Part shown: piece after piece, positions 32,127 to 58,430 of the stretch
Layout: the number at the start of each line of letters is the position of its first letter
How positions within the stretch are numbered: the stretch's first letter is position 1
Assembly (NCBI GenBank): GCA_016873655.1
Contig: VGWI01000001.1
Span: forward strand, 3,343 to 67,342
Length of the DNA: 64,000 bases
DNA from: Lentisphaerota bacterium
GTDB taxonomy: Bacteria > Verrucomicrobiota > Kiritimatiellia > UBA8416 > VGWI01
Reading direction: 5' to 3'
Notes under the pieces: generated by a model
What the model was told of the DNA's origin: nothing
Seen by the model: only the letters and a program-made list of their open reading frames with translations
Database searches by the model: none
Program-made: the position numbers and the translations under genes

Positions 32127-32543
32127 ATGCGACACAAGGTAAAATCCACCAGGCTTGGCCGCACGACGGCGCATCGCAGGGCCACTGCAGCGGCTCTGGT
32201 GCGCGGCCTGATAAACGAACAGCGGATAAAGACGACTCTTCAGAAGGCAAGGCTTACCCGGGTGCAGGCCGAGAAGATCGTGACTGTGGCCAGGAAGGGC
32301 ACGCTTGCCTCCAGAAGGCAGGTAGTCGCGTTTCTTTCAGACGGCCCGCACGTGAAGAAGCTGTTTGAGGAGATAGTTCCGCTCTGCAAAGGCAGGAACG
32401 GCGGCTACACCAGAATCATCAAGCTCGGGAGGCGTGTCAGTGACAGCTCCGAGATGGTGTTGCTCGAATGGGTCCGTTCCTCCCCGGCAGATGCAGCAGT
32501 CACGGCGGGTGACGGCGCCGAAGCCGGGGCTGAAAAGGCCTGA
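32127..32543 (+). CDS. rplQ: 50S ribosomal protein L17
   Basis: MRHKVKSTRLGRTTAHRRA matches L17. Confidence 0.95.
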   Translation: MRHKVKSTRLGRTTAHRRATAAALVRGLINEQRIKTTLQKARLTRVQAEKIVTVARKGTLASRRQVVAFLSDGPHVKKLFEEIVPLCKGRNGGYTRIIKLGRRVSDSSEMVLLEWVRSSPADAAVTAGDGAEAGAEKA

Positions 32544-32604
32544 TCGGCTTCCTGTGACGTGATGCCGCGTTCATGCGCGGCAGCGCCTGCCGGAAGGGAG
32601 AGCG

Positions 32605-33864
32605 ATGCCCCGCTACAAGTACGCGGCGATGGATTCGAAGGGCGGCGAGACGTCCGGCGAGATAGATGCCGAGAGTCAAGCCAAGGCGGTTGCCGCGATC
32701 CGTGCGCGCGGGCTGTTCCCCACGAAGCTGACGCCGACTGCTGCGGGGCCGCGTGCGTCCTCGGGCGCGAAGGGGCTCAAGACAGAGATCCGTCTGCCGC
32801 GTTTTCTGCGCGGCCGAGTTCGAACCAAGCAGCTCATGGTCTTGACCCGCCAGCTGGCGACGCTGGTAGACGCGGGACTGCCGTTGCTGCGAGGGCTCAG
32901 AATCCTGCTCAGGCAGGAGCGTAATCCGACGCTTCGCGAAGCCTTGAGCCAGATCGGCGAGGCCGTTGAGAGTGGAAGCAATTTTTCCGAGGCCCTTGCC
33001 CAGCACCCAAAGATATTCGACAACCTCTTCGTGAACATGGTTCGCGCTGGCGAAGCGGGCGGCGTTCAGGAAGTGGTGCTGCTGCGTCTGGCCGAATTCA
33101 TGGAGAAGGGCGAGCGGATCAAGAACCGCATACGCAGCGCCATGGTCTATCCCGTGGTGGTGCTTGTCGCGGCGGTCGGCATACTGTCATTCCTGCTGAC
33201 CTTTGTCATACCGAAGTTTCAGGAGATATTTGAAGATCTGCTCGGGGACCGCGGGCTGCCTGCCATCACGCAATTCGTGATAGATGTCAGCACCATCGTG
33301 AAAACGAAGGGGTTGTGGGTGGTTGGCGGAATCGCTTTGATCTGGGCTGGGTTCGTGGCTTTCGGGAGGACCCGCCGCGGAAGGCTGATCGTCGACGGGA
33401 TGAAGCTCAAGATTCCGCTGTTCGGCGGGCTGATGACTAAGACATCGGTCGCGAGATTTGCCCGGACCCTCGGGACACTGATGAGCTCGGGTGTGCCGGT
33501 GCTGCAGGCTTTGAACATTGTCCGGGACACGAGCGGCAATTCTGTTGTTGCCAAGGCGATCCAGGACGTCCATGACAGTGTGAAGGAAGGCGACGCCATG
33601 GCCGTGCCGCTCGAGGCGTGCGGTGTGTTTCCGGGCATGGTCGTAAGCATGGTTGATGTCGGTGAAGAGACCGGCGCTTTGCCTGACATGCTTGTGAAGA
33701 TAGCCGACACTTACGAGGACGAGGTCGACACAGCCGTGGAGGGCCTGACCTCGATCATCGAGCCGGTAATGATCGTGTTTCTTGCCGTCATCATCGGGAC
33801 GATAGTCATAGCGATGTTCGTGCCGCTGATTTCCATTATCGGCGAGCTGTCCGGCGGCGCGTGA
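32605..33864 (+). CDS. pilC: type II secretion/type IV pilus inner-membrane platform protein (GspF/PilC family)
   Basis: Two T2SSF-type repeats and 3 TM segments. Conserved GspF segments are LATLVDAGLPLLRGL and GEETGALPDML. RBS GGAAGGGAG lies before ATG 32605. Confidence 0.85.
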   Translation: MPRYKYAAMDSKGGETSGEIDAESQAKAVAAIRARGLFPTKLTPTAAGPRASSGAKGLKTEIRLPRFLRGRVRTKQLMVLTRQLATLVDAGLPLLRGLRILLRQERNPTLREALSQIGEAVESGSNFSEALAQHPKIFDNLFVNMVRAGEAGGVQEVVLLRLAEFMEKGERIKNRIRSAMVYPVVVLVAAVGILSFLLTFVIPKFQEIFEDLLGDRGLPAITQFVIDVSTIVKTKGLWVVGGIALIWAGFVAFGRTRRGRLIVDGMKLKIPLFGGLMTKTSVARFARTLGTLMSSGVPVLQALNIVRDTSGNSVVAKAIQDVHDSVKEGDAMAVPLEACGVFPGMVVSMVDVGEETGALPDMLVKIADTYEDEVDTAVEGLTSIIEPVMIVFLAVIIGTIVIAMFVPLISIIGELSGGA

Positions 33865-34020
33865 TTCGGCCACGCCGCGGTTTCGACAGTCGCATACTCC
33901 AGCATGCCTCCATGTGCACGGCGGTGCACTGTCGGCGCTGTCCGACGATCACGGTTGTCTGGGTGAGTGCCTTCAACCAACTTAACCGCAACGTCTTGTG
34001 TGTTAGTAGGTCTATGGCGC

Positions 34021-34350
34021 ATGCCGTGCTTGGGCCGGTATGGCGAGGTCCAGGAAGAGATGGTCGAGGAGGCCGATGGGGCCGTCACCTCCGGCGCTGT
34101 CGCGACGAACAAGCTCCAGGATCCGTCGGCAACCAATGCTGCTGCCGTGGAATACGATGTTCCCGAGTACGCATATCGTCTGCAGGGCAAGGTGGAGAGG
34201 AAAGAGGGGGCGAAGGTTGGCGGTTCCGCGCCGGGCGGCCCGCAGGAAACGGAACGCAGCGGCGGAGTTGATGTCGGCCGCACCAGACAGACCTGTGGGG
34301 AGATGCCGCTGCCCCCACCTCCGGTTCCTGGCAGGTGCGCAGGTGTTTGA
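34021..34350 (+). CDS. possible small acidic protein, unknown function (weak call)
   Basis: It is the only frame in the 33.9-34.5 kb gap with high GC3 and protein-like composition (EEMVEEADGAVTSGAVATNKLQDP...). There is no convincing RBS; the start is uncertain (34021 or 34060). Confidence 0.2.
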   Translation: MPCLGRYGEVQEEMVEEADGAVTSGAVATNKLQDPSATNAAAVEYDVPEYAYRLQGKVERKEGAKVGGSAPGGPQETERSGGVDVGRTRQTCGEMPLPPPPVPGRCAGV

Positions 34351-34563
34351 GATGGTCATTGCCTCGGTTCCGGCTGTTCGATCTCGCGTTGTGGCGGCAC
34401 CGACGCGTGCGGTGCGACAAGGATTTCCGGTCCGACTGACTCACCATACTTCGATGCCCCCTTTGCTTCGGTAACATCAATTGTGGCGCAATGCGCCTCC
34501 GAAAAAGAGTTTTGATTCCCCCTGCCATTCCGTATAGTGTGCCGACACACTGGGAGGTGGTGC

Positions 34564-35229
34564 ATGACGCGTACAGCTCCTTTTCGCGTGTTTCGGACGG
34601 TGTTGTTTTCGGCCGTGCTTGTGGTTCCCGTGTCGGTGTTCGGGCAGGTTTCGCGAAGCGGGTCCCGCTATGTGGCAGCCTCGTCAGGTGCTGTCGCGGC
34701 CGAAGGCGAGGTCGTCAGGATCCGCAAGTTGCGCGGGTTGAGTGCCCAGGACAAGATCCGCACTCCCAACTATCAGACCGATCTTACGGGCCCGACCAAG
34801 CCCGCCAAGGAGTGGGTGAACATATCGGTCAGCTACGACACTTACCCCGAGATAATCGAAGAGCTCACCTTCCGGTTCTATGTCCTTGCGGGTAAGCGGG
34901 TCGCTGGTTCCCCGGCGCCGGCTTACACTTTCTACCAGGCCAATGTCACTTATCTCGACATTGAGGCTGGACGCGGACATGAGGGCAGCGTTCTCCTGCG
35001 GCCCCCGGCCCTGAAGCTTCACGGTGACCTCATTGCGTTGGCCGTGGAAGTGTATCACAAGGGTGAGGTGGTCGGCCAAGAGAGCGACGGGCCTCGTGAC
35101 TTTGCGGCTGACTGGTGGAAGAAGGTTGACCAGCCCGGCGTCACGGCCAGAGCCGGGTATCTTCTGCCCCGTTCTCAGACACCGTTTGCCTTCGTCAACC
35201 CGGATGACTACGAGTATGCCAGGCCATAG
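34564..35229 (+). CDS. secreted hypothetical protein (Sec signal peptide), unknown function
   Basis: RBS GGGAGGTGG precedes ATG 34564. N-terminal signal peptide MTRTAPFRVFRTVLFSAVLVVPVSVFGQ; no recognisable domain. It is not a class III (prepilin) signal. Confidence 0.6.
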   Translation: MTRTAPFRVFRTVLFSAVLVVPVSVFGQVSRSGSRYVAASSGAVAAEGEVVRIRKLRGLSAQDKIRTPNYQTDLTGPTKPAKEWVNISVSYDTYPEIIEELTFRFYVLAGKRVAGSPAPAYTFYQANVTYLDIEAGRGHEGSVLLRPPALKLHGDLIALAVEVYHKGEVVGQESDGPRDFAADWWKKVDQPGVTARAGYLLPRSQTPFAFVNPDDYEYARP

Positions 35230-35265
35230 TCGGCGGGGTCCCATTCGGTCCGGAAGCAGTTCGGA

Positions 35266-36924
35266 ATGTTGAGATCCAGACGAATACTTGCTCTTGATAT
35301 CGGGTCCAGCAAGGTGGTGCTGGCCGAGTTTGCCTTGCTCAAGTCGGGCGAGATTCATCTCACGGACTGTGGGATCGGGAGCCTCGGCTTCGAGCCTGAC
35401 ACGGAAGGCGACGTTTCGGCGTACATCGTTTCGGCCATACGCGACGTGATGCGCGCGCGCGGGATGAGACCGGGGCACCTCATGATGACCGTATCCGGTC
35501 ATGCGGTCTTTCCACGTTTTGTGAAGCTTCCGCCAGTGGCGCGCGACAAGGTTCAGCAGATAGTCCGCTACGAGGCCGAGCAGAACGTGCCCTTCCCGAT
35601 AGAGGAAGTCGTCTGGGACCATCAGCTTGTCGGCGACTCGCAGGGCGAGATGAACGTGATTCTTGTGGCGGCGAAGACGGAGAGCATCAAGTCGCTCACG
35701 GACTGTGTTCTTGCCGTTGACATGGAGCCGGAGGTCGTTGACGTCGCACCGATGGCGCTCTACAACGCCGTCAGGTACAACTGCCCGGAAATGACCGGCT
35801 GCACGATGGTGTTGGATATCGGCGCCAGGACCTCGAATCTCATTTTCATAGAATCTTCCCGCATATTCAGCCGCAGTATTCCAGTGGCGGGCAATACGAT
35901 TACGCAGGAGATAGCCAAGGAGCTGGATGTTCCTTTCGCGGAAGCGGAGCGGCTGAAGATCGAGCACGCCGTGGTTGGGCTTGGCGGGGTGTACGCCGGC
36001 CCGGACAACGACACAGCCGATCTTATCTCGAAGATCACGCGCAACGTCGTGACGCGTCTGCATGCCGAGGTGAACCGTTCGATAAACTTCTATCGGGGGC
36101 AGCAGTCAGGGAGTTCTCCCAACAGAGTGCTTCTCACGGGCGGCTCTTCCGTCATACCTCATATGGACACGTTCTTCCGCGAGAAGCTCAAGGTTGACGT
36201 GGAGCACTTCAACCCGCTTGCTCGGGTTCCGGTTGGCGGCAGGCTGGTGCAGCAGGAGGTGGCTCGGGACGCTCATTTGCTGGCGCAGGTTGTTGGGCTT
36301 GGGCTGCGAAAGGCTCTCAAGTGTCCTGTTGAGATCAACCTTATGCCTCCCGACCTCGTCGCGCGCAAACAGATGAGGAAGAGACAGCCTTTCTTTGTTC
36401 TGTCCGCGTTGGGCGCAGCGCTGATTCTGTTGTGCTGGTGGGCGTATACGCGGCAGATGACGGCGGTCTTCAGGACAAGGATCGAGAACATTGAGACGCG
36501 CATAAGCGGAATGGCGAGCGTTGCCGGTCAGCTCGGGCGGATCCAGTCTGAGAAGGCCGTTGTTGACAAGCAGATGGGCTTCTTGCTGTGGCTGGTTGAA
36601 TCACGGGGCAGATGGTTGCAGGTTCTATCGGCGCTGGACGCCTGCCTTCTTGACGGGATGTGGCTTACGTCGGTGAAGCCGGTTGATTCAGGGGACGGGG
36701 CTGTCCGGCGGGTCAAGGTGACAGGGGTGGGTTTTGCGGACAAGTTGAAGGCCGCGGAGCGGGCGGACGCCACTGCGGTTGAGGTGCTGGTGGAGCGCCT
36801 GAAGAAATCGCCGGAGTTCGGGCCGGGTGTCGAGATAAAGCCGGTGCCGTTGCCGGCCATGGGGGCTTCCTCGCGCGATTTCGAGGTAGTCGTGGATCTG
36901 GTTGTGCCGATAGTGGTTCAGTGA
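35266..36924 (+). CDS. type IV pilus assembly PilM-PilN fusion protein
   Basis: N-terminal ~350 aa show the actin-like PilM/FtsA fold pattern (ILALDIGSSKVVLAEF...VLDIGARTSNLIF). They are followed in-frame by a PilN-like segment: INLMPPDL motif, a single TM helix FFVLSALGAALILLCWWAY and a periplasmic domain. Confidence 0.75.
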   Translation: MLRSRRILALDIGSSKVVLAEFALLKSGEIHLTDCGIGSLGFEPDTEGDVSAYIVSAIRDVMRARGMRPGHLMMTVSGHAVFPRFVKLPPVARDKVQQIVRYEAEQNVPFPIEEVVWDHQLVGDSQGEMNVILVAAKTESIKSLTDCVLAVDMEPEVVDVAPMALYNAVRYNCPEMTGCTMVLDIGARTSNLIFIESSRIFSRSIPVAGNTITQEIAKELDVPFAEAERLKIEHAVVGLGGVYAGPDNDTADLISKITRNVVTRLHAEVNRSINFYRGQQSGSSPNRVLLTGGSSVIPHMDTFFREKLKVDVEHFNPLARVPVGGRLVQQEVARDAHLLAQVVGLGLRKALKCPVEINLMPPDLVARKQMRKRQPFFVLSALGAALILLCWWAYTRQMTAVFRTRIENIETRISGMASVAGQLGRIQSEKAVVDKQMGFLLWLVESRGRWLQVLSALDACLLDGMWLTSVKPVDSGDGAVRRVKVTGVGFADKLKAAERADATAVEVLVERLKKSPEFGPGVEIKPVPLPAMGASSRDFEVVVDLVVPIVVQ

Positions 36925-36925
36925 C

Positions 36926-37897
36926 GTGAAGACGCGCAAAGCCATAGTCGTGGGGCTGGTATTCGCCGTGGTGGCGGGGATGCTGATAGGCGCAGCGGTT
37001 CTCCTTGTTCGCGGCACCGGGGAACTGGCCAGGGCGCAGACCGCGCTGGATTCGAAGCGCCGGGAATATGACAGTTACTACGGCAGAAAGCCTTTCCCTT
37101 CGGCTGATAACGTTTCCGTCGAGAAACGGAACCTTGCCGACGAGAAGGGATGGTTGAAGAACATACTGGCGGCTGCGGCGGAGGGAACGCCGGAAGTCCA
37201 GGAGAACACGCCGTCCACGTTCGTGCGGCAGTTGGTGGAAATCAAGGCTCAGTTGAAGGATGCGGCGGCCAGGAGTCGCGTGGCTCTGCAGCCGAGTCCG
37301 GACGCGTTCTCCTTCTCCTTCCAGAGATACTTCGAGGGAAGCGTGTTGCCGGATAAGGATCACGTTGCCATGATGAGTCAGCAACTGGCCATCGTGGAGG
37401 GCTTGTGCCGGCTTCTCTTCAGATGCGGCGTATTGAGCATAGACGCGGTGGCAAGAGACGAGTTCGAATCCGTAAGGGCGACGGTGCAGGGCCCGGGCGA
37501 GGACAGGCCGGGAATACGAGCGCTTGCAGGCGCTTCTCAACGTGACGGCGCTCTTGTCAACAGGATGGGGCCGGTAAGCGACCATCAGTTGTATGCAAGA
37601 ATGTACTTCGGGCTGCGGTTCAAGTCGACCGAGGATACTCTCTGGCGTGTCCTGAACGAGCTTGCCGCGCATGAAGTGTTCTGCGTGGTCAATTCCGTAT
37701 CCGTCGAAAAAGATGGACAGGATATCCGATCTCCGCGCGGTCTGGCAGGCCTGGCCGCGACGGATGCTGACGTGCCGGCTGCCACTGTCGCGCTGCGCGA
37801 GATGTCAAGGCAGGAGAGGCAGGTTACAGGGAAAGAGATCGAGACCCCAGTGGTGGTGACGCTGCACATCAGCGCCTATCTGTTCAAGGTTCCTTGA
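36926..37897 (+). CDS. N-terminally membrane-anchored coiled-coil protein in the PilO position; resembles the Amuc_1100 family
   Basis: GTG start 2 nt after the pilMN stop. One TM helix (IVVGLVFAVVAGMLIGAAVLL), then a coiled coil and an alpha/beta region. The C-terminal pattern PVVVTLHISAYLFKVP and internal segments match my recollection of Akkermansia Amuc_1100; this is unverified. Confidence 0.5.
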   Translation: MKTRKAIVVGLVFAVVAGMLIGAAVLLVRGTGELARAQTALDSKRREYDSYYGRKPFPSADNVSVEKRNLADEKGWLKNILAAAAEGTPEVQENTPSTFVRQLVEIKAQLKDAAARSRVALQPSPDAFSFSFQRYFEGSVLPDKDHVAMMSQQLAIVEGLCRLLFRCGVLSIDAVARDEFESVRATVQGPGEDRPGIRALAGASQRDGALVNRMGPVSDHQLYARMYFGLRFKSTEDTLWRVLNELAAHEVFCVVNSVSVEKDGQDIRSPRGLAGLAATDADVPAATVALREMSRQERQVTGKEIETPVVVTLHISAYLFKVP

Positions 37898-37919
37898 TGC
37901 CGGAAAGGGAGCGGGGAAA

Positions 37920-38945
37920 GTGATTGCCGTTATCAGGAAGAACTACGACAAGGTGATGGCAGCCGTTGTCACGGTAATGCTTCTCGCCTCGCTGGCGTAC
38001 CTGGCGGCACGGGTTTCGAGCATACGCGAGATGGAGAAGGACTTCGACCAGACGATCAGCATGGTTCGGCCAAAGCATCCTGTAGCCCACTCGCTGGATG
38101 CGACGCCGTACGAATCGGCGATGGCGCTTGTCAGGACCCCGTTCGCCATCAACCCGTCTGACTACACGAATTTCTGGATGTTTGTGCCGGCCAGACGCTG
38201 CATATGCGTCGTCTGCCGCCGTCCGATACCGATCGAGTCAAAGGAGTGCACGTTCTGCTTGGAGCCGCAGCCAGAGCCGAAGGAGACGATGGAGGACTAT
38301 GACGGCGACATGGATGGGATGTGGGACGTATGGGAGAGAGAGCACGGGCTCAATCCTTTCGACCCGTCGGATGCGGAAAAGGACAATGACGGGGACAAAT
38401 TCTCGAATGCAGCGGAATTCAGAGGGAAGACGGATCCGAATGAGGCGTTGAGCTACCCGCCGCTGGAGGCCGAACTGTTTTTCGAGAAGGTAAATGTTGA
38501 CCCGTTCAGGCTTCTTTTCAAGAGCCGTATCACGCTGCCTGGCGGCGAGTTCAAGTTCGGCATAAATACCCGCGAGAACGCGAAGACTTACTTCGTAAAG
38601 ATCGGCGACGATGTGGAGGGGTTCAGGGTGCTGTCCCACGAGGAGAGAGTAGAGACCGTCGTCAAGGGCGGCATGCCGAGGCGAGTGGATGTTTCGGTTC
38701 TCACCCTCAAGCGAGGCGACAGGGAAATCGCCCTCGTAAAGGACCGTGATTTCTCGTACGTGGAGTATCTTGTCCACTTCGTGTTTGCTCTGGATGATCT
38801 CAGATTCCAGAAGAGACCGGAGGACGAGTTCAGTCTCAGATCGCATCGCTACAAGGTCATAGGGGTTGACATTGGCCGTAACCGTGTACTAATTAGTCGC
38901 ATGGAGGATGGGGAACGGGTTGAGGTGACGCCCGTATCCGAGTGA
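37920..38945 (+). CDS. membrane-anchored protein with C4 zinc-ribbon and DxDxDG calcium-loop motifs (PilP position)
   Basis: RBS AAAGGGAGCGGGG precedes GTG 37920. TM helix near the N-terminus. C-x2-C-x15-C-x2-C (CICVVCRRPIPIESKECTFC). Acidic segment DPSDAEKDNDGDKFSNAAEFRGKTDPNE. C-terminal beta-rich domain. Confidence 0.45.
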   Translation: MIAVIRKNYDKVMAAVVTVMLLASLAYLAARVSSIREMEKDFDQTISMVRPKHPVAHSLDATPYESAMALVRTPFAINPSDYTNFWMFVPARRCICVVCRRPIPIESKECTFCLEPQPEPKETMEDYDGDMDGMWDVWEREHGLNPFDPSDAEKDNDGDKFSNAAEFRGKTDPNEALSYPPLEAELFFEKVNVDPFRLLFKSRITLPGGEFKFGINTRENAKTYFVKIGDDVEGFRVLSHEERVETVVKGGMPRRVDVSVLTLKRGDREIALVKDRDFSYVEYLVHFVFALDDLRFQKRPEDEFSLRSHRYKVIGVDIGRNRVLISRMEDGERVEVTPVSE

Positions 38946-39041
38946 GGTTGAGCGATCGGCCGGGCCGGGGATGTAGCTCGTGGCTGGTCTCTCTCAGTGT
39001 CCTTTTCGTTGCTTGGAACAACCACAAGGAGTGAACTTCCG

Positions 39042-42000
39042 ATGACTCGGATTGGCAAGGGTTGGCTGCTTGCGGCGGCTGTGGCTATTATGCTTTCGGC
39101 CGTTGGTGCGTTTCGCGCCCAGGACATTGACGAGAACGCCGCCAAGGTCGCGGAAGAGGTTCTGATAGAAGAGATCGTCAACGGGGATCTCGTGGAGTCT
39201 TCTGTCAGAAGAGAGATGGCGTCTCCTTCTCCAGTTGCAGATGCGGATTCTCTGATAGTTGCGGCCACTTCTTCTCCCTCCCCGGCGCCCGCGAAGGCAG
39301 AAGATTCCGTCGAGTTTCTCGCTGAGGCGGCGTTGGGTTCCGCGCCTGTCCTACCAATGGAGGATGAGCCTGTTGTGCTGCCGGAGCCGTTGGCCCCGGT
39401 CGCTCCAATTCGTTCCGGGGCGGTCGTTGTTGCCTCGCAGATGAGTGAAGAGGAGGCGACCGGTCTGGCAGCGGAGGTGGATGCCGAGGAACTGCTGGCC
39501 AAAGTTGACACTCAATCAGTTGTTTCCGCGGGTAGCGGATTGCCGGCGCCGGCGGCAGAGGAGATCGTTCCGGTTCTGGCTCTCGATGATGTCGAGCCGG
39601 TTGCTCCGGTTGAGGAAGAGGTCACTGAACTGGTTGTCGACGAGCCCATCGAAGAGCCTTTTGTCTCCATGGTTCCTTCCGAAGAAGTCCAGGAAGCCCT
39701 TGTTGAAGAACCGTTGGTTCTGATCGAGCCGGTGGTTGGACCGACAGAGCCGGTTATGACCGCCGTGTCCGCCGGGCAGGGGGAAGGTCGGCCGGTTGTT
39801 GAGAAGGTGGATCCAGTTCACGAGGATCTCGATGCTGACCTGCTTGCGATCATGGGGGCTGAAGCAGCCGTAAAGCCCGCGAAGAAAGTCCCGCCCACAG
39901 AATCGGCGGCACCGACAGCGGGCGACGGTAACGGCGTTAGAGTTGGGGTCGTTGAAGACCAGGAAGTGCTGCGTCGCCGGGCTTTGGCCGCCCACGCGCG
40001 TGAACTCCTGAAGCAGGCCGACGATGACCTGGCCAACGGGCGCTACGAGATCGGGATTGTCCGGTACCGCAACGCCATAAGGGGACTTTCGCTGCCGGCC
40101 GACGTGAAGATCAGGAAGCAGGCAGAGCGCGGTCTGGCCGAGTGCTACTACCGTAACTCCCTTTACCTTGAAAAGCAGAACGATCTGAACGCGTCGCTTG
40201 TGGCGGCGAAATCGTCCATGGATGCCGGTCATCCGAAGGGCGAGGCGCAGTTCGTGAAGATCAAGAAGCTGATTGATGAACCGCCTCCGCCGAAACTGGC
40301 GCCGCCGACCGAACGCTGGAATCAGCAGGAGTACAGGGACAAGCAGGCAAAGATCGCCGACCTCATGAAGCGGGGTCGCGAGTATTCGATGGCCGGTGAA
40401 TTTGACAATGCCGCCCAGGACTTCAGGGGCGTGCTTGCGCTTGACCCCCAGAACACGGAAGCCATGCGATTGCTCAAGAAGGTCGAGCAGGTAATGTATG
40501 ACAGGGCTTCGATGGAAGCCGAAGCCACCCGCCAAAGCATGATGCGGGAAGTGCGCGAGGGGTGGAACCCGCGTGACTACAAGTACGCCCAGGAGTCGGC
40601 TGCGGTCATGAAGCCTGGCGATGTGACAAGGCAGCCGCGCGGCGAGACTGTCCGTACGAGGATAATGAAGAAACTGGAGCAGATCACCATCCCAGAGATC
40701 GATTTCAGGCTGGCGAACATCAACGACGTTCTGGAAGTCCTCCAGGATTCGAGCCGGGAGTTTGACAAGAGTGAGACCGATGAGGGCAAGAAGGGCGTCA
40801 ATATCATCCTGAATCTCAGGTCGGGCGCCACAGGAGGGGCAGCAGCTCCATCGCTGGCGCCGATCGGTGACCTGTTTTCTACGACGGCCCCCGCTTCAAC
40901 CGCGAGAGGCTCGGCGGTCCCGGGCAGCGAGGCGGTTCCGCTCATTACCTTCAATGCGCGTTACATCTCTCTGCTCGAGGCGCTCAAGATAGTCACGAAC
41001 GTCGCGAACCTGAAATGGCGCATTGAGGGCAGCGTGGTTATGATCGTTCCCCTGAACGCCCCTGACGGCGAGGTCATCGTTCGCATGTACGATGTTCTCC
41101 CGTCCGTTGAGGAGAAGATTCCCCAGATGCGTGCCGCGCTTGGCGGCGGAGCCGGCGGCAGCGGGTTCCGTTCGATGGAAGCCGCGGGGATGAACATCGA
41201 AGGTGCCGACTGGAAAGAGTTCTTCCAGGAGATGGGTGTTAAGTGGCCGGACGGATCCTCAATCAAGTACGTTCGGGCGATAGGCAAGGTGGTTGTCGCT
41301 AATACAGAAGATAACCTTATGCGGTTCGAGCAGGTTCTGTCGGTGCTCAACGTTGTGCCCAACCAGATTGAGATTGAGGCGCGTTTCGTGGAGGTCAGCC
41401 GTGCCGACGTGTCCGCGCTCGGGTTCGAATGGCTGCTGACTGACAACTGGGAGATGGCGAGCCATCCTGATGATGCGGCGCTCCCGCCGGCCTCCCGTCG
41501 CCGCCTGGTGATGAACGAATCGAACATGACGAAGGGCAACCGTTTTCTCAGCAAGGAGAGCGTCGCCACCGCCGTGGCGGATGACATAATGACCATATCG
41601 TCCGTACTGACCAACCCGGAACTGTCTTTCGTGCTTCATGCCTTGGAACAGCGCGGGTTTGCCGACCTTCTGTCGGCGCCGAAGGTGACTACTCAGGCTG
41701 GTCAGGAGGCAACGATCAAGGTAGTGACGGAGTACATCTATCCGACGGATTTTGAGGTGACTCCGGTTACCGGCACGGCGACGGCCACAGGCGCAACCAC
41801 GATACGCGGTGGCGTTGTGGAGCCTTCGGGGTTTGAGACTCGCGAGGTCGGCGTCATACTGACTGTGCTCCCGGACGTAAGCCCGGAGGGGCGTATGATC
41901 AATCTGACGATGACGCCTGAGGTCGTAAGTGAGCCGGAGTGGAAAGACTATGGATCCATATTCACGGACGATCAGGGCAACGAGACAAGGTTGAGGATGG

Positions 42001-42356
42001 AGCAGCCTTTCTTTTATACGCGGTCAATCGCGACGTCCATATCCATATACAACGGAGCGACCGTTGTGATGGGTGGTATGATGAATGAGGTGCGGCGCGA
42101 TACCGATGACAAAGTGCCGTTCCTCGGCGATATCCCGATAGTCGGGAAGCTGTTCCGCAGTAAGAGCGAGCGGAGCGACAAGCGCAATCTTCTGATCTTC
42201 GTGACGGCCAAACTAGTCACTCCCGACGGTCGGCCGGTCGAGAAGAGCGGGGAAAGCCTTGCCGGGCGGATAGCCGAAGCCGGTCTGGTGCCGGATCTCG
42301 GCAAGTCGTCGGAAACGTCCGCTGCGCCGGGCATGGGCGGCCTGACGTTCCCGTGA
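39042..42356 (+). CDS. pilQ: secretin (PilQ/GspD family) with long acidic low-complexity N-terminal region and TPR-like repeats
   Basis: C-terminal secretin core (VPFLGDIPIVGKLFRSKSERSDKRNLLIFVTAKLV) preceded by secretin-N-like repeats. Residues ~40-300 are E/P/V/A-rich low complexity. TPR-like helices run ~310-500. RBS AAGGAG precedes ATG 39042. Confidence 0.85.
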   Translation: MTRIGKGWLLAAAVAIMLSAVGAFRAQDIDENAAKVAEEVLIEEIVNGDLVESSVRREMASPSPVADADSLIVAATSSPSPAPAKAEDSVEFLAEAALGSAPVLPMEDEPVVLPEPLAPVAPIRSGAVVVASQMSEEEATGLAAEVDAEELLAKVDTQSVVSAGSGLPAPAAEEIVPVLALDDVEPVAPVEEEVTELVVDEPIEEPFVSMVPSEEVQEALVEEPLVLIEPVVGPTEPVMTAVSAGQGEGRPVVEKVDPVHEDLDADLLAIMGAEAAVKPAKKVPPTESAAPTAGDGNGVRVGVVEDQEVLRRRALAAHARELLKQADDDLANGRYEIGIVRYRNAIRGLSLPADVKIRKQAERGLAECYYRNSLYLEKQNDLNASLVAAKSSMDAGHPKGEAQFVKIKKLIDEPPPPKLAPPTERWNQQEYRDKQAKIADLMKRGREYSMAGEFDNAAQDFRGVLALDPQNTEAMRLLKKVEQVMYDRASMEAEATRQSMMREVREGWNPRDYKYAQESAAVMKPGDVTRQPRGETVRTRIMKKLEQITIPEIDFRLANINDVLEVLQDSSREFDKSETDEGKKGVNIILNLRSGATGGAAAPSLAPIGDLFSTTAPASTARGSAVPGSEAVPLITFNARYISLLEALKIVTNVANLKWRIEGSVVMIVPLNAPDGEVIVRMYDVLPSVEEKIPQMRAALGGGAGGSGFRSMEAAGMNIEGADWKEFFQEMGVKWPDGSSIKYVRAIGKVVVANTEDNLMRFEQVLSVLNVVPNQIEIEARFVEVSRADVSALGFEWLLTDNWEMASHPDDAALPPASRRRLVMNESNMTKGNRFLSKESVATAVADDIMTISSVLTNPELSFVLHALEQRGFADLLSAPKVTTQAGQEATIKVVTEYIYPTDFEVTPVTGTATATGATTIRGGVVEPSGFETREVGVILTVLPDVSPEGRMINLTMTPEVVSEPEWKDYGSIFTDDQGNETRLRMEQPFFYTRSIATSISIYNGATVVMGGMMNEVRRDTDDKVPFLGDIPIVGKLFRSKSERSDKRNLLIFVTAKLVTPDGRPVEKSGESLAGRIAEAGLVPDLGKSSETSAAPGMGGLTFP

Positions 42357-42390: not shown

Positions 42391-43269
42391 ATGCAGAGAC
42401 TGCTTCTCGTTGACGGTCACAATGTACTCTACAGGGCTTTCTTCGCCTTCCCGCCTCTCACCACGCGTGCTGGCGTGCACACAAACGCCGTCTTCGGCTT
42501 CGTGAAGATGCTGCGCCAGCTGCTGGACGTGAGGGGCCCGACACATCTCCTTGTTGTGCTGGACGGCGGGGTGCCCGCGGAACGGTCGGGCATGATCGCC
42601 GGGTACAAGGCGAATCGGAAGCCGATGCCAGATGACCTCAGGCCGCAGGTCGGGCTTCTGGAGAAGTATATGGAGGCTTCGGGAACCGCCTGGCTCCGTG
42701 TGCCTGGCGAGGAAGCAGACGACGTGATGGCGTCAGCGGCGGTTCAATGGCATGGAATGTTCCAGGACATCATCCTGGCGTCGTCGGACAAGGATCTTCT
42801 CCAGGTTGTTTGTGACGGGATTTCTGTGGTCCCCGTGACCGGGAAGGCGAACGTGAGCACGGGGCCTTGCGAGGTGAGGGAGAAGACGGGAGTGGTGCCA
42901 GGTCAGATTGTTGACTGGCTCGCGATGGCGGGCGACGCAGCGGATAACGTTCGCGGCATAGACGGAGTCGGGCCGAAGAAGGCGGCGAAGCTGCTGAGCG
43001 AATTCGGCACCGTGGACGGGGTCTATGGCCATATCGAGGAGTTGAAGCCTGGGGTTACAAGAGATGCGATAGTCGCGGCGCGCGACAGAGTCTATGCAAA
43101 CAGGGAAGCCATGCGATTGAGAACGGGCATTTGCCTTGGCCTGGATCCGGCGGACGCTGAAATCAAGCCGCCGGACAGGCGCAGGCTTGTGCCGCTTCTC
43201 GAAGAGCTGGAATTCAATTCGATGGCGGCGGAACTGCGTCAATGCGGGCTCTTCCCGGGCTTTGGCTGA
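42391..43269 (+). CDS. standalone 5'-3' exonuclease (DNA polymerase I N-terminal nuclease domain / FEN-like)
   Basis: LLLVDGHNVLYRAFFA..., metal-binding acidic clusters and H3TH. The ORF stops at 292 aa with no polymerase domain downstream. Confidence 0.8.
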   Translation: MQRLLLVDGHNVLYRAFFAFPPLTTRAGVHTNAVFGFVKMLRQLLDVRGPTHLLVVLDGGVPAERSGMIAGYKANRKPMPDDLRPQVGLLEKYMEASGTAWLRVPGEEADDVMASAAVQWHGMFQDIILASSDKDLLQVVCDGISVVPVTGKANVSTGPCEVREKTGVVPGQIVDWLAMAGDAADNVRGIDGVGPKKAAKLLSEFGTVDGVYGHIEELKPGVTRDAIVAARDRVYANREAMRLRTGICLGLDPADAEIKPPDRRRLVPLLEELEFNSMAAELRQCGLFPGFG

Positions 43270-43451: not shown

Positions 43452-44048
43452 ATGCTCCGATTAGCCGTCACTGGAGGGATTGCCTGCGGGAAGAGTCTTG
43501 CGGGTTCGATCCTGAATGAGCTGGGGATGCGTGTAGCCGAAGCCGACGACATGGCGCATGACCTGTTGCGGCGAGGCACTGAGACGCACCGGCTGGTTGT
43601 GGAATCGTTTGGTCGGAGCGTGCTGTGGGCTGACGGCGAGGTCGACAGGGCGGCTCTGGGTCGCATGGTCTTTGCCGACCGCAGGCGGCTTTTCAGGCTG
43701 AACGCCATTGTGCATCCCGAAGTAAAGCGGGTCTGGCGCGAATGGCTCTGCAGCGAGGAACAATCCGGCACCGGCGAGGCTGTCGTGGTCGTTCCGTTGC
43801 TCTACGAGGTAGGGGAGGGATCCGGTTGGGACGCGGTGATAGCCGTCACGAGTTCCCGGTCGGTACAGATTGAGAGGATGCTCGGCAGGGGCCTGACTGC
43901 GGTCGAAGCGGAAGCGCGTCTGGGTGCCCAGATGGCGAATCCGGAGAAAGAAGCCCTGGCTGACTACGTGATAAGAAACGACGGTTCCATGGGTCTGCTT
44001 GAGCGGCAGGCTCGCATGGTGGTGGATAGTATTCGGAGAAGAAAGTGA
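43452..44048 (+). CDS. coaE: dephospho-CoA kinase
   Basis: P-loop [12 protein letters not shown] and CoaE family length. Confidence 0.85.
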
Positions 44049-45514
44049 ACATGCCGGACAGAAATCATGGCGGACAGCGGCGGCCGCACCGGGGGCGCCC
44101 CGGCAGGCCGAGACCACACGGTAACCACATGCGCGAGCAGCGCCAATGGGAGAATCCCATGGATGACAGCAGACCCAGAGACGAAGAAGTATTGCCGCCC
44201 CGCGCTGACCAGCCTGAGGGAGATCAGCCTGTGCCGCAGGATGAAACGCGGAAGGGCGGTCCGGCGCTCAGTCTGTACGACCTTCAGGAAAAGACAGTTC
44301 CGGAACTGAATGAAATCGCGGACAGTTTTGGGCTCAAGGATCTCGGAGCGCTTCGTAAGCACGAGCTGATCTTCGAGATACTCAAGGCCAGCGCCCGCGT
44401 TACCGGCGCGATGGTCAGCAAGGGTATCCTCGAGATACTGCCTGACGGGTTTGGTTTTCTAAGGTCCGCCTACAACAACTACCTGCCGTGTCCGGAGGAT
44501 ATCTACGTCTCTCCTTCCCAGATCCGCCGTTTTGCGCTTCGAACCGGCGACCTGGTTGAAGGCGAGATACGCGAGCCGCGCGAGAAGGAGCGGTTTTTCG
44601 CCCTGCTGCGCGTGGACAAGGTGAACGGTGAGAATCCCGACCGGTCGAGGCACAAGGTGCCGTTCGAGAACCTGACCCCATTGTTCCCGAACCGCAGAAT
44701 AGGGCTTGAGAGGGAACCTGACGAGATATCCATGCGCGTTATGGACATCTTCACGCCGATCGGGTTTGGACAGCGCGGCCTGATTGTTGCCGCCCCGCGC
44801 ACAGGAAAGACCGTCCTGCTGCAGAAGATAGCGAACAGCATATCGGCGAACCATCCGGAAGCGCACCTGATAATCCTGCTGATAGATGAGCGCCCGGAGG
44901 AAGTGACCGACATGATGCGCAGCACGAAGGCGCAGGTGTTGAGTTCGACGTTCGACGAAGCCCCGGAGCGTCACGTCCAGGTTGCGGAACTGGTGATCGA
45001 GATGTCCAAACGCATGGTTGAGTGCGGAAAGGACGTTGTCATACTGCTGGACAGCATCACTCGCCTGGCCAGGGCGTACAACACTCTTCAGCCGCACAGC
45101 GGCAAGATCCTTTCCGGTGGTGTCGATGCCAACGCGCTTCACAAGCCGAAACGTTTCTTCGGTGCCGCACGGAACATCGAGAACGGCGGCAGCCTGACGA
45201 TAATAGCCACGGCTCTCGTCGAGACTGGAAGCAGGATGGACGACGTGATCTTTGAAGAGTTCAAGGGCACCGGCAACATGGAACTGTGTCTTGATCGGAC
45301 TCTTGTGGACAAGCGGGTGTTCCCGGCGATAAACATAGAGAAGAGCGGGACACGCAAGGAAGAGCTTCTGCTGCACCCGGATGAGCTGGGGCGTGTGTGG
45401 GTTCTGAGGCGCGCGGTTAACGGCGTACCCGTGGTTGAATCCATGGAGATGATAGTTAACAGGCTCAAGAAGACAAAGAGCAACGCGGAGTTCCTGTTGT
45501 CGATGAAGGAATAG
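44045..45514 (+). CDS. rho: transcription termination factor Rho with basic N-terminal extension
   Basis: RNA-binding domain, Walker A (AAPRTGKT), Q- and R-loops. The ~75-aa N-terminal segment is Arg/Pro/Gly-rich. Confidence 0.9.
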
Positions 45515-55715: not shown

Positions 55716-56780
55716 TCATACCCACTTCCTGCCGCGGAAATAGACCGCCATGCCGATCGAAGACAAGAGGAGGCATCCCCATGCCCATGCGTATCCATAG
55801 TGCCACTTCAGTTCCGGCATATGCTCGAAATTCATGCCGTATAGTCCCGTGATGAACGTCAACGGCAGGAAGATGGTCGAAATGAGTGTCAGAACCTTCA
55901 TTATTTCGTTCATCCGGTTGCTCATGCTGGACATGTGGATTTCCATCGCGCCGGACAGGAGATCGCGCAGGGACTCAACGGTATCGATCACCTGTATGGC
56001 GTGTTCGTAGACATCGCGCAGAAACGGCTTCAGCTTTCGTGAAAGCAGAGGCGACTCGGATTTTTCCATCGTGCTGAGGAGTTCACGCAGAGGCCATGCG
56101 CTCTTGCGGACGAATATCAGTTCCTGCCGGAGCCGGTGAATCTCCGCGACAGTCGAGCTTGCCGGTTTTTCCAAGGCCTCGTCCTGCACGTCTTCCACGT
56201 GTTCCCCGAGCGATTCGAGAACGACAAAATAGCTGTCAACCATTGCGTCTATCAGGCAGTAGGCGAGGTAATCGGCGCCCATGTTTCGAATCCGCCCTGC
56301 GCCGGTTCTCAGCCGCTCGCGGATGGTTTCGAATACATCGCCTTCGACTTCCTGAAAAGAAAGCACGAATCCCTTGCCCAGTATCAGTGCGAAGTGCTCA
56401 GCGACGAGATCGCTGTTGTCGTCGTCCATGTAGAGCATCTTCAGTGTGAACAGGATGTAGTCTCCGTAGTCCTCTATTTTTGGCCGCTGGCCGGTGCTCA
56501 GGACATCCTCAAGCGCCAGTGGGTGAATGTTGAACACTTCACCGAACTCGCGGACCTTCTCGATGTCATGTATCCCGTCCAGATTGATCCACGAGACGGT
56601 GTTCTCGTTCATGTACCCGCGGCAGTCGGCGCAATGGACGATTTCGCGTTCGCTCAAGTGATTGGAATCGTAGTCTATGACGTGGATGGATGCTTTCTCG
56701 GATCTCTTCTTTCCCAGATAGACGAGAGATCCCGGCGGGAGACCAGCCTTGCGGGAATCGTATTTCGGGTAGAACACCAT
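55716..56780 (-). CDS. corA: magnesium/cobalt transporter CorA
   Basis: Cytoplasmic funnel domain, two C-terminal TM helices and the GMN signature (GLYGMNF). Confidence 0.9.
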   Translation of the reverse strand: MVFYPKYDSRKAGLPPGSLVYLGKKRSEKASIHVIDYDSNHLSEREIVHCADCRGYMNENTVSWINLDGIHDIEKVREFGEVFNIHPLALEDVLSTGQRPKIEDYGDYILFTLKMLYMDDDNSDLVAEHFALILGKGFVLSFQEVEGDVFETIRERLRTGAGRIRNMGADYLAYCLIDAMVDSYFVVLESLGEHVEDVQDEALEKPASSTVAEIHRLRQELIFVRKSAWPLRELLSTMEKSESPLLSRKLKPFLRDVYEHAIQVIDTVESLRDLLSGAMEIHMSSMSNRMNEIMKVLTLISTIFLPLTFITGLYGMNFEHMPELKWHYGYAWAWGCLLLSSIGMAVYFRGRKWV

Positions 56781-57005
56781 CGCATCTCTCCCGTTGCCGC
56801 GGCTGATTGTCCGCCTGGCGAGGCTTCCTCAATCCACGCGGATACTGCCACGGTTCCAGCGTGTCGGCAAGCGGACTCGGGCAGGATCCTGTGCCGCCTT
56901 CCCTGGCGGTGGCCAGAAGCGGCTTGCCGCGTCGGCGCGATGGTTGGTATATGCGTTGCATACTTGAGACGTGCGGGCGTTGCCGGCACGGCCGGTGTAA
57001 CCAAG

Positions 57006-58430
57006 ATGCTGCTCCGTGTTCTTGTCGCGATCGACGATGCGCCTCTCCAGGCGCGGCTATCCGCCCTGTTGAAGGAGGAGGACGCGCTGATATGCGACCC
57101 ACTTCCGGGCTCGGACTGGGATGCTGTTGTCTCCTACCCGTGCGACGTTCTCATCACGCTGCGCAGGATGATCCCCGAACCGCGCGGCGCGACCGTGGCG
57201 AAGCTCGCGGATAACGCCGACGCGCCGGGCATAGTCGTTCTCACGCTCAACGAAAGCCCCGCGGAGGAAGCCGAGCTTGTGGCATGCGGGGCGGACGTTG
57301 TTCTGTTTGCCGGGGTGTCCGACGACATACTTGTCAGGGCGCTTGACAACGCGATAGGAGCCAGGCGCGCGCTGCTGTCTCGTTCGCTGGCAGCCAAGCG
57401 GGCGATGGCGCGTCCTCAGTTGTCGGACTTCGTTTCCGCAAGCCCGGCGATGCAGCGGTTCATGAAGACGGTTCATCGCGTGGTGGACAGTGACGCGCCG
57501 ATGCTTATCACCGGCGAGACCGGGGTGGGCAAGGAAAGGCTCGCCCGTGCGATTCATGCCGCGAGCCAGCGGAGCGATGGGGGGTTCATCTCCCTCAACT
57601 GCGGGGCCATACCCGAGAACCTGCTCGAGAGCGAATTGTTCGGTCACGAGAAGGGAGCGTTCACAGGCGCGACTCGCACGCAGCGGGGCTGTTTTGAACT
57701 GGCGCATGACGGAACGCTCTTTCTCGACGAGATCAGCGAGATGCCTTTCCACCTGCAGGTCAAGCTGCTTCATGTTCTGCAGGATTTCGAGGTCCATCCG
57801 GTCGGATCAGAACGGAGGATACCGGTTGATGTCAGGGTGATAGCGGCCACGAACCGGGACATTCAGGATGAAGTGAAGGAGAAGCGTTTCCGGCAGGATC
57901 TGTACTACAGGTTGAGCGTGGTGACGCTGGAACTTCCCCCGCTTCGCGAACGGCGCGAGGACATCCCGGCCCTGGCAGCGTCATTCGTCACCGACCTCTC
58001 GGCGCGTGTCGGTCGAAAGGTTGACGGCATCTCTCAGGCGGCGTTGAGGCGGCTTGTGGAATACGGATGGCCGGGCAATGTAAGGGAGCTGGTGAACGTG
58101 CTTGAACGAGCGATACTGCTGTGCGAAGGCAGAATGATCGAGCCCGAGGACATGCCTGAAGAGGTGAATGCCGCCGTGCCGCAGGAAGTGTCTGTCGAAG
58201 GCGTCGGCGGCTGGGACACGGCCAAGTGGGTTGACCGTCCCCTCCGCGAGGGGAGGGAAGTGTTCTCGCAGCGGTTTGAGAAGGAGTACCTTGCGATGCT
58301 GCTGCAGCGTACGCAGGGGAAAGTGGCGGAAACCGCCCGAATGGCCGGCATTGAGCCGCGGTCTCTTTTCTCCAAGATGCGCAAGTACGGATTGCGCAAG
58401 CAGGATTTCAAGCCTTCAAAGGAACAATGA
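57006..58430 (+). CDS. sigma-54-dependent transcriptional regulator (NtrC-family: receiver-like, AAA+, Fis-type HTH)
   Basis: Walker A GETGVGKE, GAFTGA motif (HEKGAFTGA), arginine finger region, C-terminal HTH (LAMLLQRTQGKVAETARMAGI). The ORF-track start 56136 is an antisense-of-corA extension. Confidence 0.8.
   Translation: MLLRVLVAIDDAPLQARLSALLKEEDALICDPLPGSDWDAVVSYPCDVLITLRRMIPEPRGATVAKLADNADAPGIVVLTLNESPAEEAELVACGADVVLFAGVSDDILVRALDNAIGARRALLSRSLAAKRAMARPQLSDFVSASPAMQRFMKTVHRVVDSDAPMLITGETGVGKERLARAIHAASQRSDGGFISLNCGAIPENLLESELFGHEKGAFTGATRTQRGCFELAHDGTLFLDEISEMPFHLQVKLLHVLQDFEVHPVGSERRIPVDVRVIAATNRDIQDEVKEKRFRQDLYYRLSVVTLELPPLRERREDIPALAASFVTDLSARVGRKVDGISQAALRRLVEYGWPGNVRELVNVLERAILLCEGRMIEPEDMPEEVNAAVPQEVSVEGVGGWDTAKWVDRPLREGREVFSQRFEKEYLAMLLQRTQGKVAETARMAGIEPRSLFSKMRKYGLRKQDFKPSKEQ

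Follow-up and report, generated by a model that had tools for sequence, protein, structure and literature searches.

A MUL2-type gene cluster beside pilC in a Kiritimatiellia-like bacterium, very likely the envelope-spanning part of a type-IVa-pilus-like machine

The stretch of DNA analysed here (the window) comprises 64,000 nucleotides (64 kb) of contig VGWI01000001.1, from a metagenome-derived assembly named Lentisphaerota bacterium, and is a single long series of co-directional housekeeping genes around six pilus-type genes. We consider it very likely that these six genes represent a Kiritimatiellia-type orthologue of the MUL2 cluster of Akkermansia muciniphila, located beside its cognate PilC gene, and that they encode those components of a type-IVa-pilus-like machine of the Planctomycetes-Verrucomicrobia-Chlamydiae (PVC) bacteria that span the cell envelope. 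In the open reading frame (ORF) map they span 32605-42356, all on the + strand. The first codes for a PilC/GspF inner-membrane platform protein of 419 aa (32605..33864) and is followed by a non-conserved spacer of 699 bp (33865..34563). The five genes 3' of the spacer are tightly packed and code for an Amuc_1102-family (MUL2A) protein of 221 aa (34564..35229), an Amuc_1101-family (MUL2B) protein of 552 aa that joins PilM to a PilN-like part (35266..36924), an Amuc_1100-family protein of 323 aa with an N-terminal membrane anchor in the PilO position (36926..37897), an Amuc_1099-family protein of 341 aa with an N-terminal membrane helix in the PilP position (37920..38945), and an Amuc_1098-family secretin of 1104 aa (39042..42356). 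An independent gene caller gave the same genes with the same starts on identical contigs from other samples. An earlier note on this DNA had the coordinates and the gene order from PilC through the secretin right, giving 222 and 1105 aa for the secreted protein and the secretin in place of 221 and 1104; of the seven co-directional ORFs that it counted, six are borne out and the seventh, a small acidic ORF in the spacer, is unsupported.

What the six genes encode, how they are ordered and that they are orthologous to MUL2 was established by family searches against Pfam and NCBIfam (the NCBIfam equivalog cut-offs are tuned to close Akkermansia relatives) and by profile comparisons with PDB; the folds of two of the proteins are shown as well, and so is the linkage of pilC with pilins, motor ATPases and MUL2 in relatives. 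The PilC protein, 80% identical to its closest relatives, matched Pfam T2SSF in two repeats (7.7e-66) and the NCBIfam models PilC (1e-125) and GspF (2e-122; 409 bits, cut-off 424), both under their equivalog cut-offs. Pfam recognised PilM_2 in the Amuc_1101-like protein (2.8e-39) and Secretin in the last gene product (2.1e-37), the latter with additional weak matches to tetratricopeptide repeats (TPR); it gave no match for the Amuc_1102-, Amuc_1100- and Amuc_1099-like proteins, and no PilN, PilO or PilP model matched. With NCBIfam the five proteins fell, in gene order, into the families Amuc_1102 (3.3e-10), Amuc_1101 (8e-149), Amuc_1100 (8.8e-22), Amuc_1099 (2e-21) and Amuc_1098 (7.3e-126). 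Only Amuc_1099_fam scored above its equivalog cut-off, the other four matches being significant but below theirs. The secretin also matched the NCBIfam models GspD (1.6e-47) and PilQ (7.9e-39). A profile of 42 orthologues of the Amuc_1102-like protein matched PDB 7DSZ (Amuc_1102) at 2.1e-15, and one of 43 orthologues of the Amuc_1100-like protein matched PDB 6KNY/6LAD (Amuc_1100) at 4e-8; such profiles were needed, since searching PDB with single sequences of the three small proteins gave no match. Precomputed Pfam annotation places the families Amuc_1102 (PF28178) and Amuc_1100 (PF28028) on these same genes. The translated ORFs thus gave significant matches to pilus and secretin families (T2SSF, PilM_2, Secretin), and the labels that had been proposed from the letters alone for PilC, the secreted protein, the PilM part of the fusion protein, the zinc-ribbon/calcium-loop protein and the secretin proved sound. 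The likeness to Amuc_1102..Amuc_1098 that the earlier note pointed out is now documented by five NCBIfam families in the Akkermansia order and the two PDB profile matches.

The domain structure of the five proteins agrees with these assignments. The Amuc_1102-like protein has a Sec-type signal peptide and is not a class III prepilin; Amuc_1102 itself has been reported to resemble an archaeal type IV pilin. In the Amuc_1101-like protein a cytoplasmic actin-like PilM domain (residues 1-350), which by fold score is PilM rather than GspL, is followed by a long membrane-spanning helix (362-460) and a C-terminal alpha/beta domain (465-550) that occupies the PilN position. The membrane helix, long helix and alpha/beta domain of this C-terminus and the membrane anchor of the Amuc_1100-like protein would fit a PilN/PilO topology, and Amuc_1100 is reported to be structurally similar to PilO/PilN (bioRxiv 10.64898/2025.12.30.696933). 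The Amuc_1099-like protein combines a Cys4 zinc ribbon (C96, C99, C110, C113) with Asp-rich calcium loops (128-166), and its C-terminal beta region includes a GspC/PilP-type HR domain; for this family such a domain goes beyond the literature that we examined. The HR domain is the secretin-binding part in both type II secretion systems (T2SS) and type IV pili (T4P). In the secretin the signal peptide is followed by a long acidic linker rich in Pro and Val, then by a TPR region and, at the C-terminus, by the secretin domain.

The linker of the secretin has ~280 residues (about 40-320; window 39150-39960), is acidic and rich in Pro, Val, Glu and Ala, and the gene spacing in related loci suggests that its length varies widely. 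Near the 3' end of the Amuc_1099-like gene (window 38812-38930), single-base indels distinguish the window from three contigs of the same population (L081, L082 and L083; related loci are designated here by L numbers). The window reads GTGACGCCC where the three other assemblies read GTG-TGCCC, and L081 has an additional G ~115 bp upstream of this site. The predicted length of the protein shifts with these indels (341, 351 or 316 aa), as does its C-terminus, and they could be either strain variation or assembly error.

For comparison, the PilM-like protein was used to gather 80 related genome loci and PilC to gather 80 metagenome loci, and extra contigs were added by exact protein look-up. The 1102-1101-1100-1099-1098 order is kept in nearly all of the genome loci, and nearly every Kiritimatiellia-like genome sampled has the five-gene core: the Amuc_1102-like gene is present in 75/76, the Amuc_1100-like gene in 70/71, the Amuc_1099-like gene in 64/64 and the secretin in 50/51. 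Also the 3' side is largely conserved, with a 5'-3' exonuclease gene (exo) after the secretin in 35/48 loci with enough downstream sequence, coaE directly after it in 10/48 and rho present in 28/35. The secretin-coaE-rho synteny has been reported for Akkermansiaceae (PMC13174399), indicating that this neighbourhood is old. Judging from substitution rates, all six genes of the cluster are under purifying selection. Against the nearest relative (L088) dN was far below dS in every one of them, with dN/dS of 0.09 for pilC, 0.10, 0.16, 0.23 and 0.21 for the Amuc_1102-, Amuc_1101-, Amuc_1100- and Amuc_1099-like genes, and an overall range of 0.09-0.23 (0.05 for rpoA and 0.16 for rplQ in the same comparison); with dS saturated (1.6-3.3) these values are rough. 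Of the columns that do not vary among 19 PilC orthologues, none is changed in the window PilC.

A six-frame search of the 64-kb window revealed no class III signal motif, and the window ORFs scanned showed no T2SSE, N_methyl or prepilin-peptidase domain, as the earlier note had seen when it reported no prepilin-type pilin, PilB/PilT/GspE ATPase or prepilin peptidase there. The relatives show where such genes can be located. Among the 59 informative metagenome loci (PilC orthologue 55-81% identical), prepilin-motif genes lie directly 3' of pilC in 42, four to six of them where the contig is long enough; in 12 pilC is arranged tail-to-tail with exo and the MUL2 cluster, two have the compact layout of the window and three another one. 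On the contig made up of L092 and L028, rplQ and pilC are followed by six N_methyl genes that resemble GspG, GspH, PilV and GspI, a GspK-like gene of 801 aa, ~20 kb of other genes and MUL2. In 12 metagenome loci a PilB-PilT-PilB triplet immediately precedes the orthologous pilC. In the tail-to-tail type it consists of a PilB-like protein of ~572 aa, a PilT-like protein of 358 aa and a second PilB-like protein of 571 aa, with T2SSE scores of 2e-140, 3e-51 and 2e-136, both long ones carrying MshEN domains. Therefore the absence of these genes from the window does not amount to degeneration, as the same pilC orthologue is flanked by prepilins or by pilB-pilT-pilB in relatives. The pilin-type loci have no ATPase adjoining pilC, which makes a dispersed motor the norm, and the Akkermansia Amuc_1098-1102 cluster as described has neither an ATPase nor a prepilin gene, so that their absence from the locus is typical of the family. 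The Akkermansia pili proteins reported to be needed for colonisation have locus tags far from Amuc_1098-1102 (PMC5332112, bioRxiv 10.64898/2025.12.30.696933). Hence the earlier suggestion of a degenerate T4P machine, or one with non-canonical partners, did not survive the comparison: a single PilC orthologue group links MUL2 to ordinary prepilins and to an ordinary pilus motor, the genes are under apparent purifying selection, and what varies by lineage is how the modules are grouped. The pilins and ATPases of this genome are presumably encoded outside the window.

The motor genes have features of their own. An operon of gatB, PilB-like, PilT-like, PilB-like and pilC genes was present in L146, L148, L150, L154, L164, L167, L168 and L171, tail-to-tail with the exonuclease and MUL2 in 7/8 of these loci, the downstream neighbour being different in L154. 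Two full-length PilB/GspE paralogues with MshEN domains in one motor operon are unusual.

From these parts we infer the following contacts. PilC would sit in the inner membrane as the platform, with the PilM domain of the Amuc_1101-like protein below the membrane and fused to the PilN-like periplasmic part, which would pair with the PilO-like Amuc_1100 homologue. The inner-membrane-anchored Amuc_1099 homologue would dock its GspC/PilP-type HR domain onto the periplasmic domains of the secretin, the putative outer-membrane pore. With PilC as the base, PilB-type ATPases would build a prepilin-type fibre that a PilT-type ATPase retracts, the pilin, motor and prepilin peptidase genes of this genome being placed outside the window. 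By analogy with Akkermansia, the machine most likely captures complex glycans at the cell surface or takes them up. In Akkermansia, according to genetic work cited in two reports, MUL2 is important for mucin acquisition (PMC13174399, bioRxiv 10.64898/2025.12.30.696933), and MUL2 proteins reach high abundance in the envelope (PMC13174399, PMC5332112, bioRxiv 10.64898/2025.12.30.696933).

The expression of the cluster has to be considered at two places, the junction between rplQ and pilC and the spacer between pilC and MUL2. The upstream boundary is rplQ (ribosomal protein L17; 32127..32543, + strand), the last gene of the alpha operon, recognised by its translation and by Pfam Ribosomal_L17 on the identical gene in L081. 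Between its stop at 32543 and the pilC start at 32605 there are 61 bp with a GC-rich 8-bp hairpin that has no T-tract (32563..32582, + strand), as had been noticed before. A consensus scan of this junction gave no terminator-like and no sigma-70-like site, with scans that are not calibrated for PVC bacteria, and the fold of 81 nt around it (-32.3 kcal/mol, z = -1.35) is not exceptional; the hairpin would be at most a weak or partial terminator. Read-through from the alpha operon into pilC is thus plausible in the window, and one may go further and propose that pilC, and perhaps the whole cluster, is transcribed in this way and its expression coupled to ribosome synthesis and growth rate. We regard this as a possibility, though a rather doubtful one. 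The short junction, the co-direction of all the genes and the high abundance of MUL2 proteins, which are among the most abundant envelope proteins of Akkermansia (PMC5332112), are in its favour. So is the recurrence of the arrangement, since rplQ adjoins pilC also in L014, L058, L088/L089 and L091-L093 and lies upstream of it in 11/43 informative metagenome loci (7 directly adjacent, 4 within 3.5 kb). The adjacency is therefore not peculiar to this genome and is seen in many relatives. However, 32/43 of those loci have no rplQ upstream of pilC, and the spacer, 61 bp in the window, measures 114-208 bp in L014, L058, L088 and L091 and ~500-520 bp in L092 and L093. In two contigs a divergent gene for a sigma-54 activator separates rplQ from pilC (L096 5259-7643, - strand; L099 5180-7675, - strand), which indicates that pilC has its own promoter there. 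Given this insertion and the variable spacing, co-expression with ribosomal proteins is not a conserved property. The idea that the cluster is fused to the ribosomal operon stands for the adjacency of rplQ and pilC and does not extend to the MUL2 genes, and the co-expression deduced from it was overstated.

Indeed, the 699-bp spacer stands between pilC and the first MUL2 gene, and in 54/56 genome loci with sufficient upstream sequence the MUL2 genes have neighbours other than pilC. With pilC beside them in only 2/56, they must normally have a promoter of their own, which in the window is probably within the spacer: a candidate -35 (TTGATT, 34512-34517) and -10 (TATAGT, 34533-34538) with 15 nt between them precede a Shine-Dalgarno GGGAGG (34552-34557) ahead of the Amuc_1102-like gene, TATAGT being 25 nt before the start codon. 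The corresponding spacer has 92-257 bp in the closest relatives. Rfam gave no match in the window except three tRNAs and no structured RNA in the spacer or the junction, and the spacer resembles neither prepilins nor any other locus. The small acidic ORF in it (109 aa, 34021-34350), proposed earlier as a seventh component, was predicted by gene callers and has a mild codon-position GC structure (0.72/0.54/0.70), although for the spacer as a whole GC is flat (0.61-0.62 at all three positions), a non-coding composition. This ORF had no Pfam match, tblastn comparison with 173 related loci gave no homologue, the closest relatives lack it, and it was not counted as part of the system.

Sigma-54 was also considered. 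The enhancer-binding proteins of L096 and L099 contain TPR repeats, and the window has a sigma-54 activator of 764 aa (56136-58430, + strand) ~14 kb downstream of the cluster. These are hints of sigma-54 control of pilC or of the pilins. A sigma-54 promoter upstream of pilC or the Amuc_1102-like gene was rejected, as TGGCAC-N5-TTGCW gave 12 matches (<=2 mismatches) against 29 expected by chance, and the sole match in the spacer (34015-34030) was not significant.

Several points weigh against a pilus-like machine for glycan capture. The 64-kb window has no pilin, PilB/PilT ATPase or prepilin peptidase, the dN/dS values suffer from the saturation mentioned above, and the glycan role is borrowed from a distant relative, the PilM identity to the one Verrucomicrobiia locus retrieved being 41%. 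Moreover, the pilins beside pilC in relatives score best with T2SS pseudopilin models (GspG/H/I/K), and the best structural match of the Amuc_1099-like domain is GspC and not PilP. These last two leave room for a role in secretion, the main rival reading: the machine would function as a T2SS in which a short pseudopilus expels folded glycoside hydrolases or sulfatases through the secretin, and no extended pilus is formed. PilC scores nearly equally against GspF and PilC, the secretin matches GspD better than PilQ, the prepilins of L092 best match GspG, GspH, GspI and the GspK N-terminus, and PilM domain plus PilN-like segment in one protein is the architecture of GspL. Yet the motor operon of the tail-to-tail relatives includes the 358-aa PilT-like retraction ATPase, and to our knowledge T2SS have none of this type. 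In addition, at least one relative (L013) contains a second GspF-family gene (186-1385, - strand), 35% identical to the window PilC and located ~8 kb upstream of MUL2 on the opposite strand of the same contig, which could serve a true T2SS; some relatives' genomes therefore have at least two platform proteins, and probably a separate T2SS. The Akkermansia locus is tied to mucin acquisition and pili-like structures and not to secretion (PMC13174399, PMC5332112). Overall we find it unlikely that the machine works as a T2SS.

The compact layout of the window, with nearly nothing between pilC and MUL2, is a minority form found in at least five other contigs (L088/L089, L094, L014, L058 and L106). 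The slot between the two is variable, reaching ~18 kb in L091/L086 and ~20 kb including pilins in L092/L028. A single origin of the layout was discarded, given that a neighbour-joining PilM tree places it in two separate small clades; in this crude tree, with no resampling support, the clade of the window has a non-compact sister. In such lineages the prepilin cluster might have been lost and its place taken by the Sec-exported Amuc_1102-like protein as a fibre or piston, expressed by read-through from the alpha operon. It would be a growth-rate-coupled, pilus-like glycan-capture machine without prepilins, and we think this quite improbable. Least credible of all is a decaying T4P remnant without pilins and motor, for which the lack of pilin, ATPase and peptidase genes in 64 kb and a non-coding spacer where most relatives have a pilin cluster 3' of pilC could be cited, but none of the six reading frames is broken, PilC shares 80% identity with its closest relative versus 67% for rplQ with a dN/dS of about 0.09 and every invariant column kept, the layout recurs in other contigs of two clades, and no trace of a pilin pseudogene is left in the spacer, where tblastn with the prepilins of at least ten relatives gave noise only.

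Other features were observed around these loci. On the contig of one close relative, formed by L091 (5509-14945) and L086 (1-9172), the ~18 kb between pilC and the Amuc_1102-like gene are co-directional and code for TPR proteins of 600, 766 and 2725 aa, ExbB, two ExbD, a DUF4159 protein and an 834-aa zinc-ribbon protein. They could form another module, of the envelope or for energy transduction, that acts together with the machine. Among L001-L080 two kinds of gene most often precede the Amuc_1102-like gene: 19 loci have immediately before it a divergent gene, on the other strand, for a secreted protein of ~480 aa, with no family match and with an Asp-rich motif weakly like the calcium loops of the Amuc_1099-like protein, and 10 have a prepilin-type gene of ~283 aa (MKKGFTLLELL...) directly upstream of it on the same strand. 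In the window, the genes that precede the cluster are, in order, tuf, the rpoB-rpoC region, the S10-spc-alpha ribosomal operons, secY, map, rpsM, rpsK, rpsD, rpoA and rplQ. The secretin is followed by the 5'-3' exonuclease (exo, 42391-43269), coaE (43452-44048) and rho (44045-45514), all on the + strand and identified with Pfam and NCBIfam, and then by tig, clpP and clpX. GC skew is positive throughout the window (1-64000), the cumulative skew climbs steadily and nearly all genes are on the + strand, which indicates that the whole window belongs to one leading-strand replichore arm.

The window itself is an ordinary result: it adds a compactly arranged member to the family, at a conserved chromosomal position. 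The Amuc_1098-1102 proteins have been studied intensively for their effects on host immunity and for mucin foraging, and their mechanism is poorly understood. The near-universal cluster, the coaE-rho neighbourhood and the linkage to PilC give a concrete parts list for a complete machine, and support the view that MUL2 serves a true type-IVa-like pilus as its alignment-and-pore module and is not a stand-alone adhesin cluster, with the zinc-ribbon/calcium-loop protein and its GspC/PilP domain as a clear candidate for the link between inner membrane and secretin. Both the spread of MUL2 into Kiritimatiellia and the PilC-centred linkage to prepilins and the PilB-PilT-PilB motor go beyond the literature examined.

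Compared with the GspC-GspD-GspF-GspL-GspM set of T2SS, the cluster shares the succession of actin-like cytoplasmic domain, membrane helix and periplasmic domain seen in GspL, a GspF-like platform, a GspD-like secretin and, in relatives, GspG/H/I/K-like pseudopilins beside pilC. It differs in having a cytoplasmic domain that is PilM and not GspL by fold score, in the PilT-like ATPase of the relatives' linked motor operon and in a gene order other than gspC-M, so that neither a GspL partner nor a system free of retraction ATPase, as expected for T2SS, was found. The likeness to PilMNOPQ of type IVa pili (T4aP; Pseudomonas, Myxococcus, Thermus) lies in the series of actin-like cytoplasmic protein, bitopic membrane proteins and secretin and in the PilB-PilT-PilC motor genes linked to the cluster in relatives. 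Of the T4aP components, the window contains the PilM actin-like protein, a protein with the PilP-type HR domain, the secretin and PilC, while prepilins, prepilin peptidase, PilB and PilT are absent from its 64 kb. Unlike in T4aP, a single polypeptide holds PilM and the PilN-like part, the counterpart of PilP is fixed in the membrane by a helix and not by lipid and has a zinc ribbon and calcium loops, the secretin includes a TPR region and a long acidic linker of its own, a Sec-secreted Amuc_1102-type protein is added at the head of the cluster, and there is no Pfam PilN, PilO or PilP match.

The closest known system is MUL2 of Akkermansia muciniphila. Sequence identity to it is low, with four of five NCBIfam matches below the equivalog cut-offs, and in the window a PilC gene directly precedes the cluster and a 5'-3' exonuclease gene separates the secretin from coaE. 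The host is also different, being Kiritimatiellia-like; the published survey of MUL2 covers Verrucomicrobiales, Chthoniobacterales and Methylacidiphilales and not Kiritimatiellia (PMC13174399). The described Akkermansia cluster has, like this one, no pilin or ATPase gene, and in both the same five families (Amuc_1102, 1101, 1100, 1099 and 1098) are co-directional and in the same order, with coaE and rho downstream (PMC13174399).

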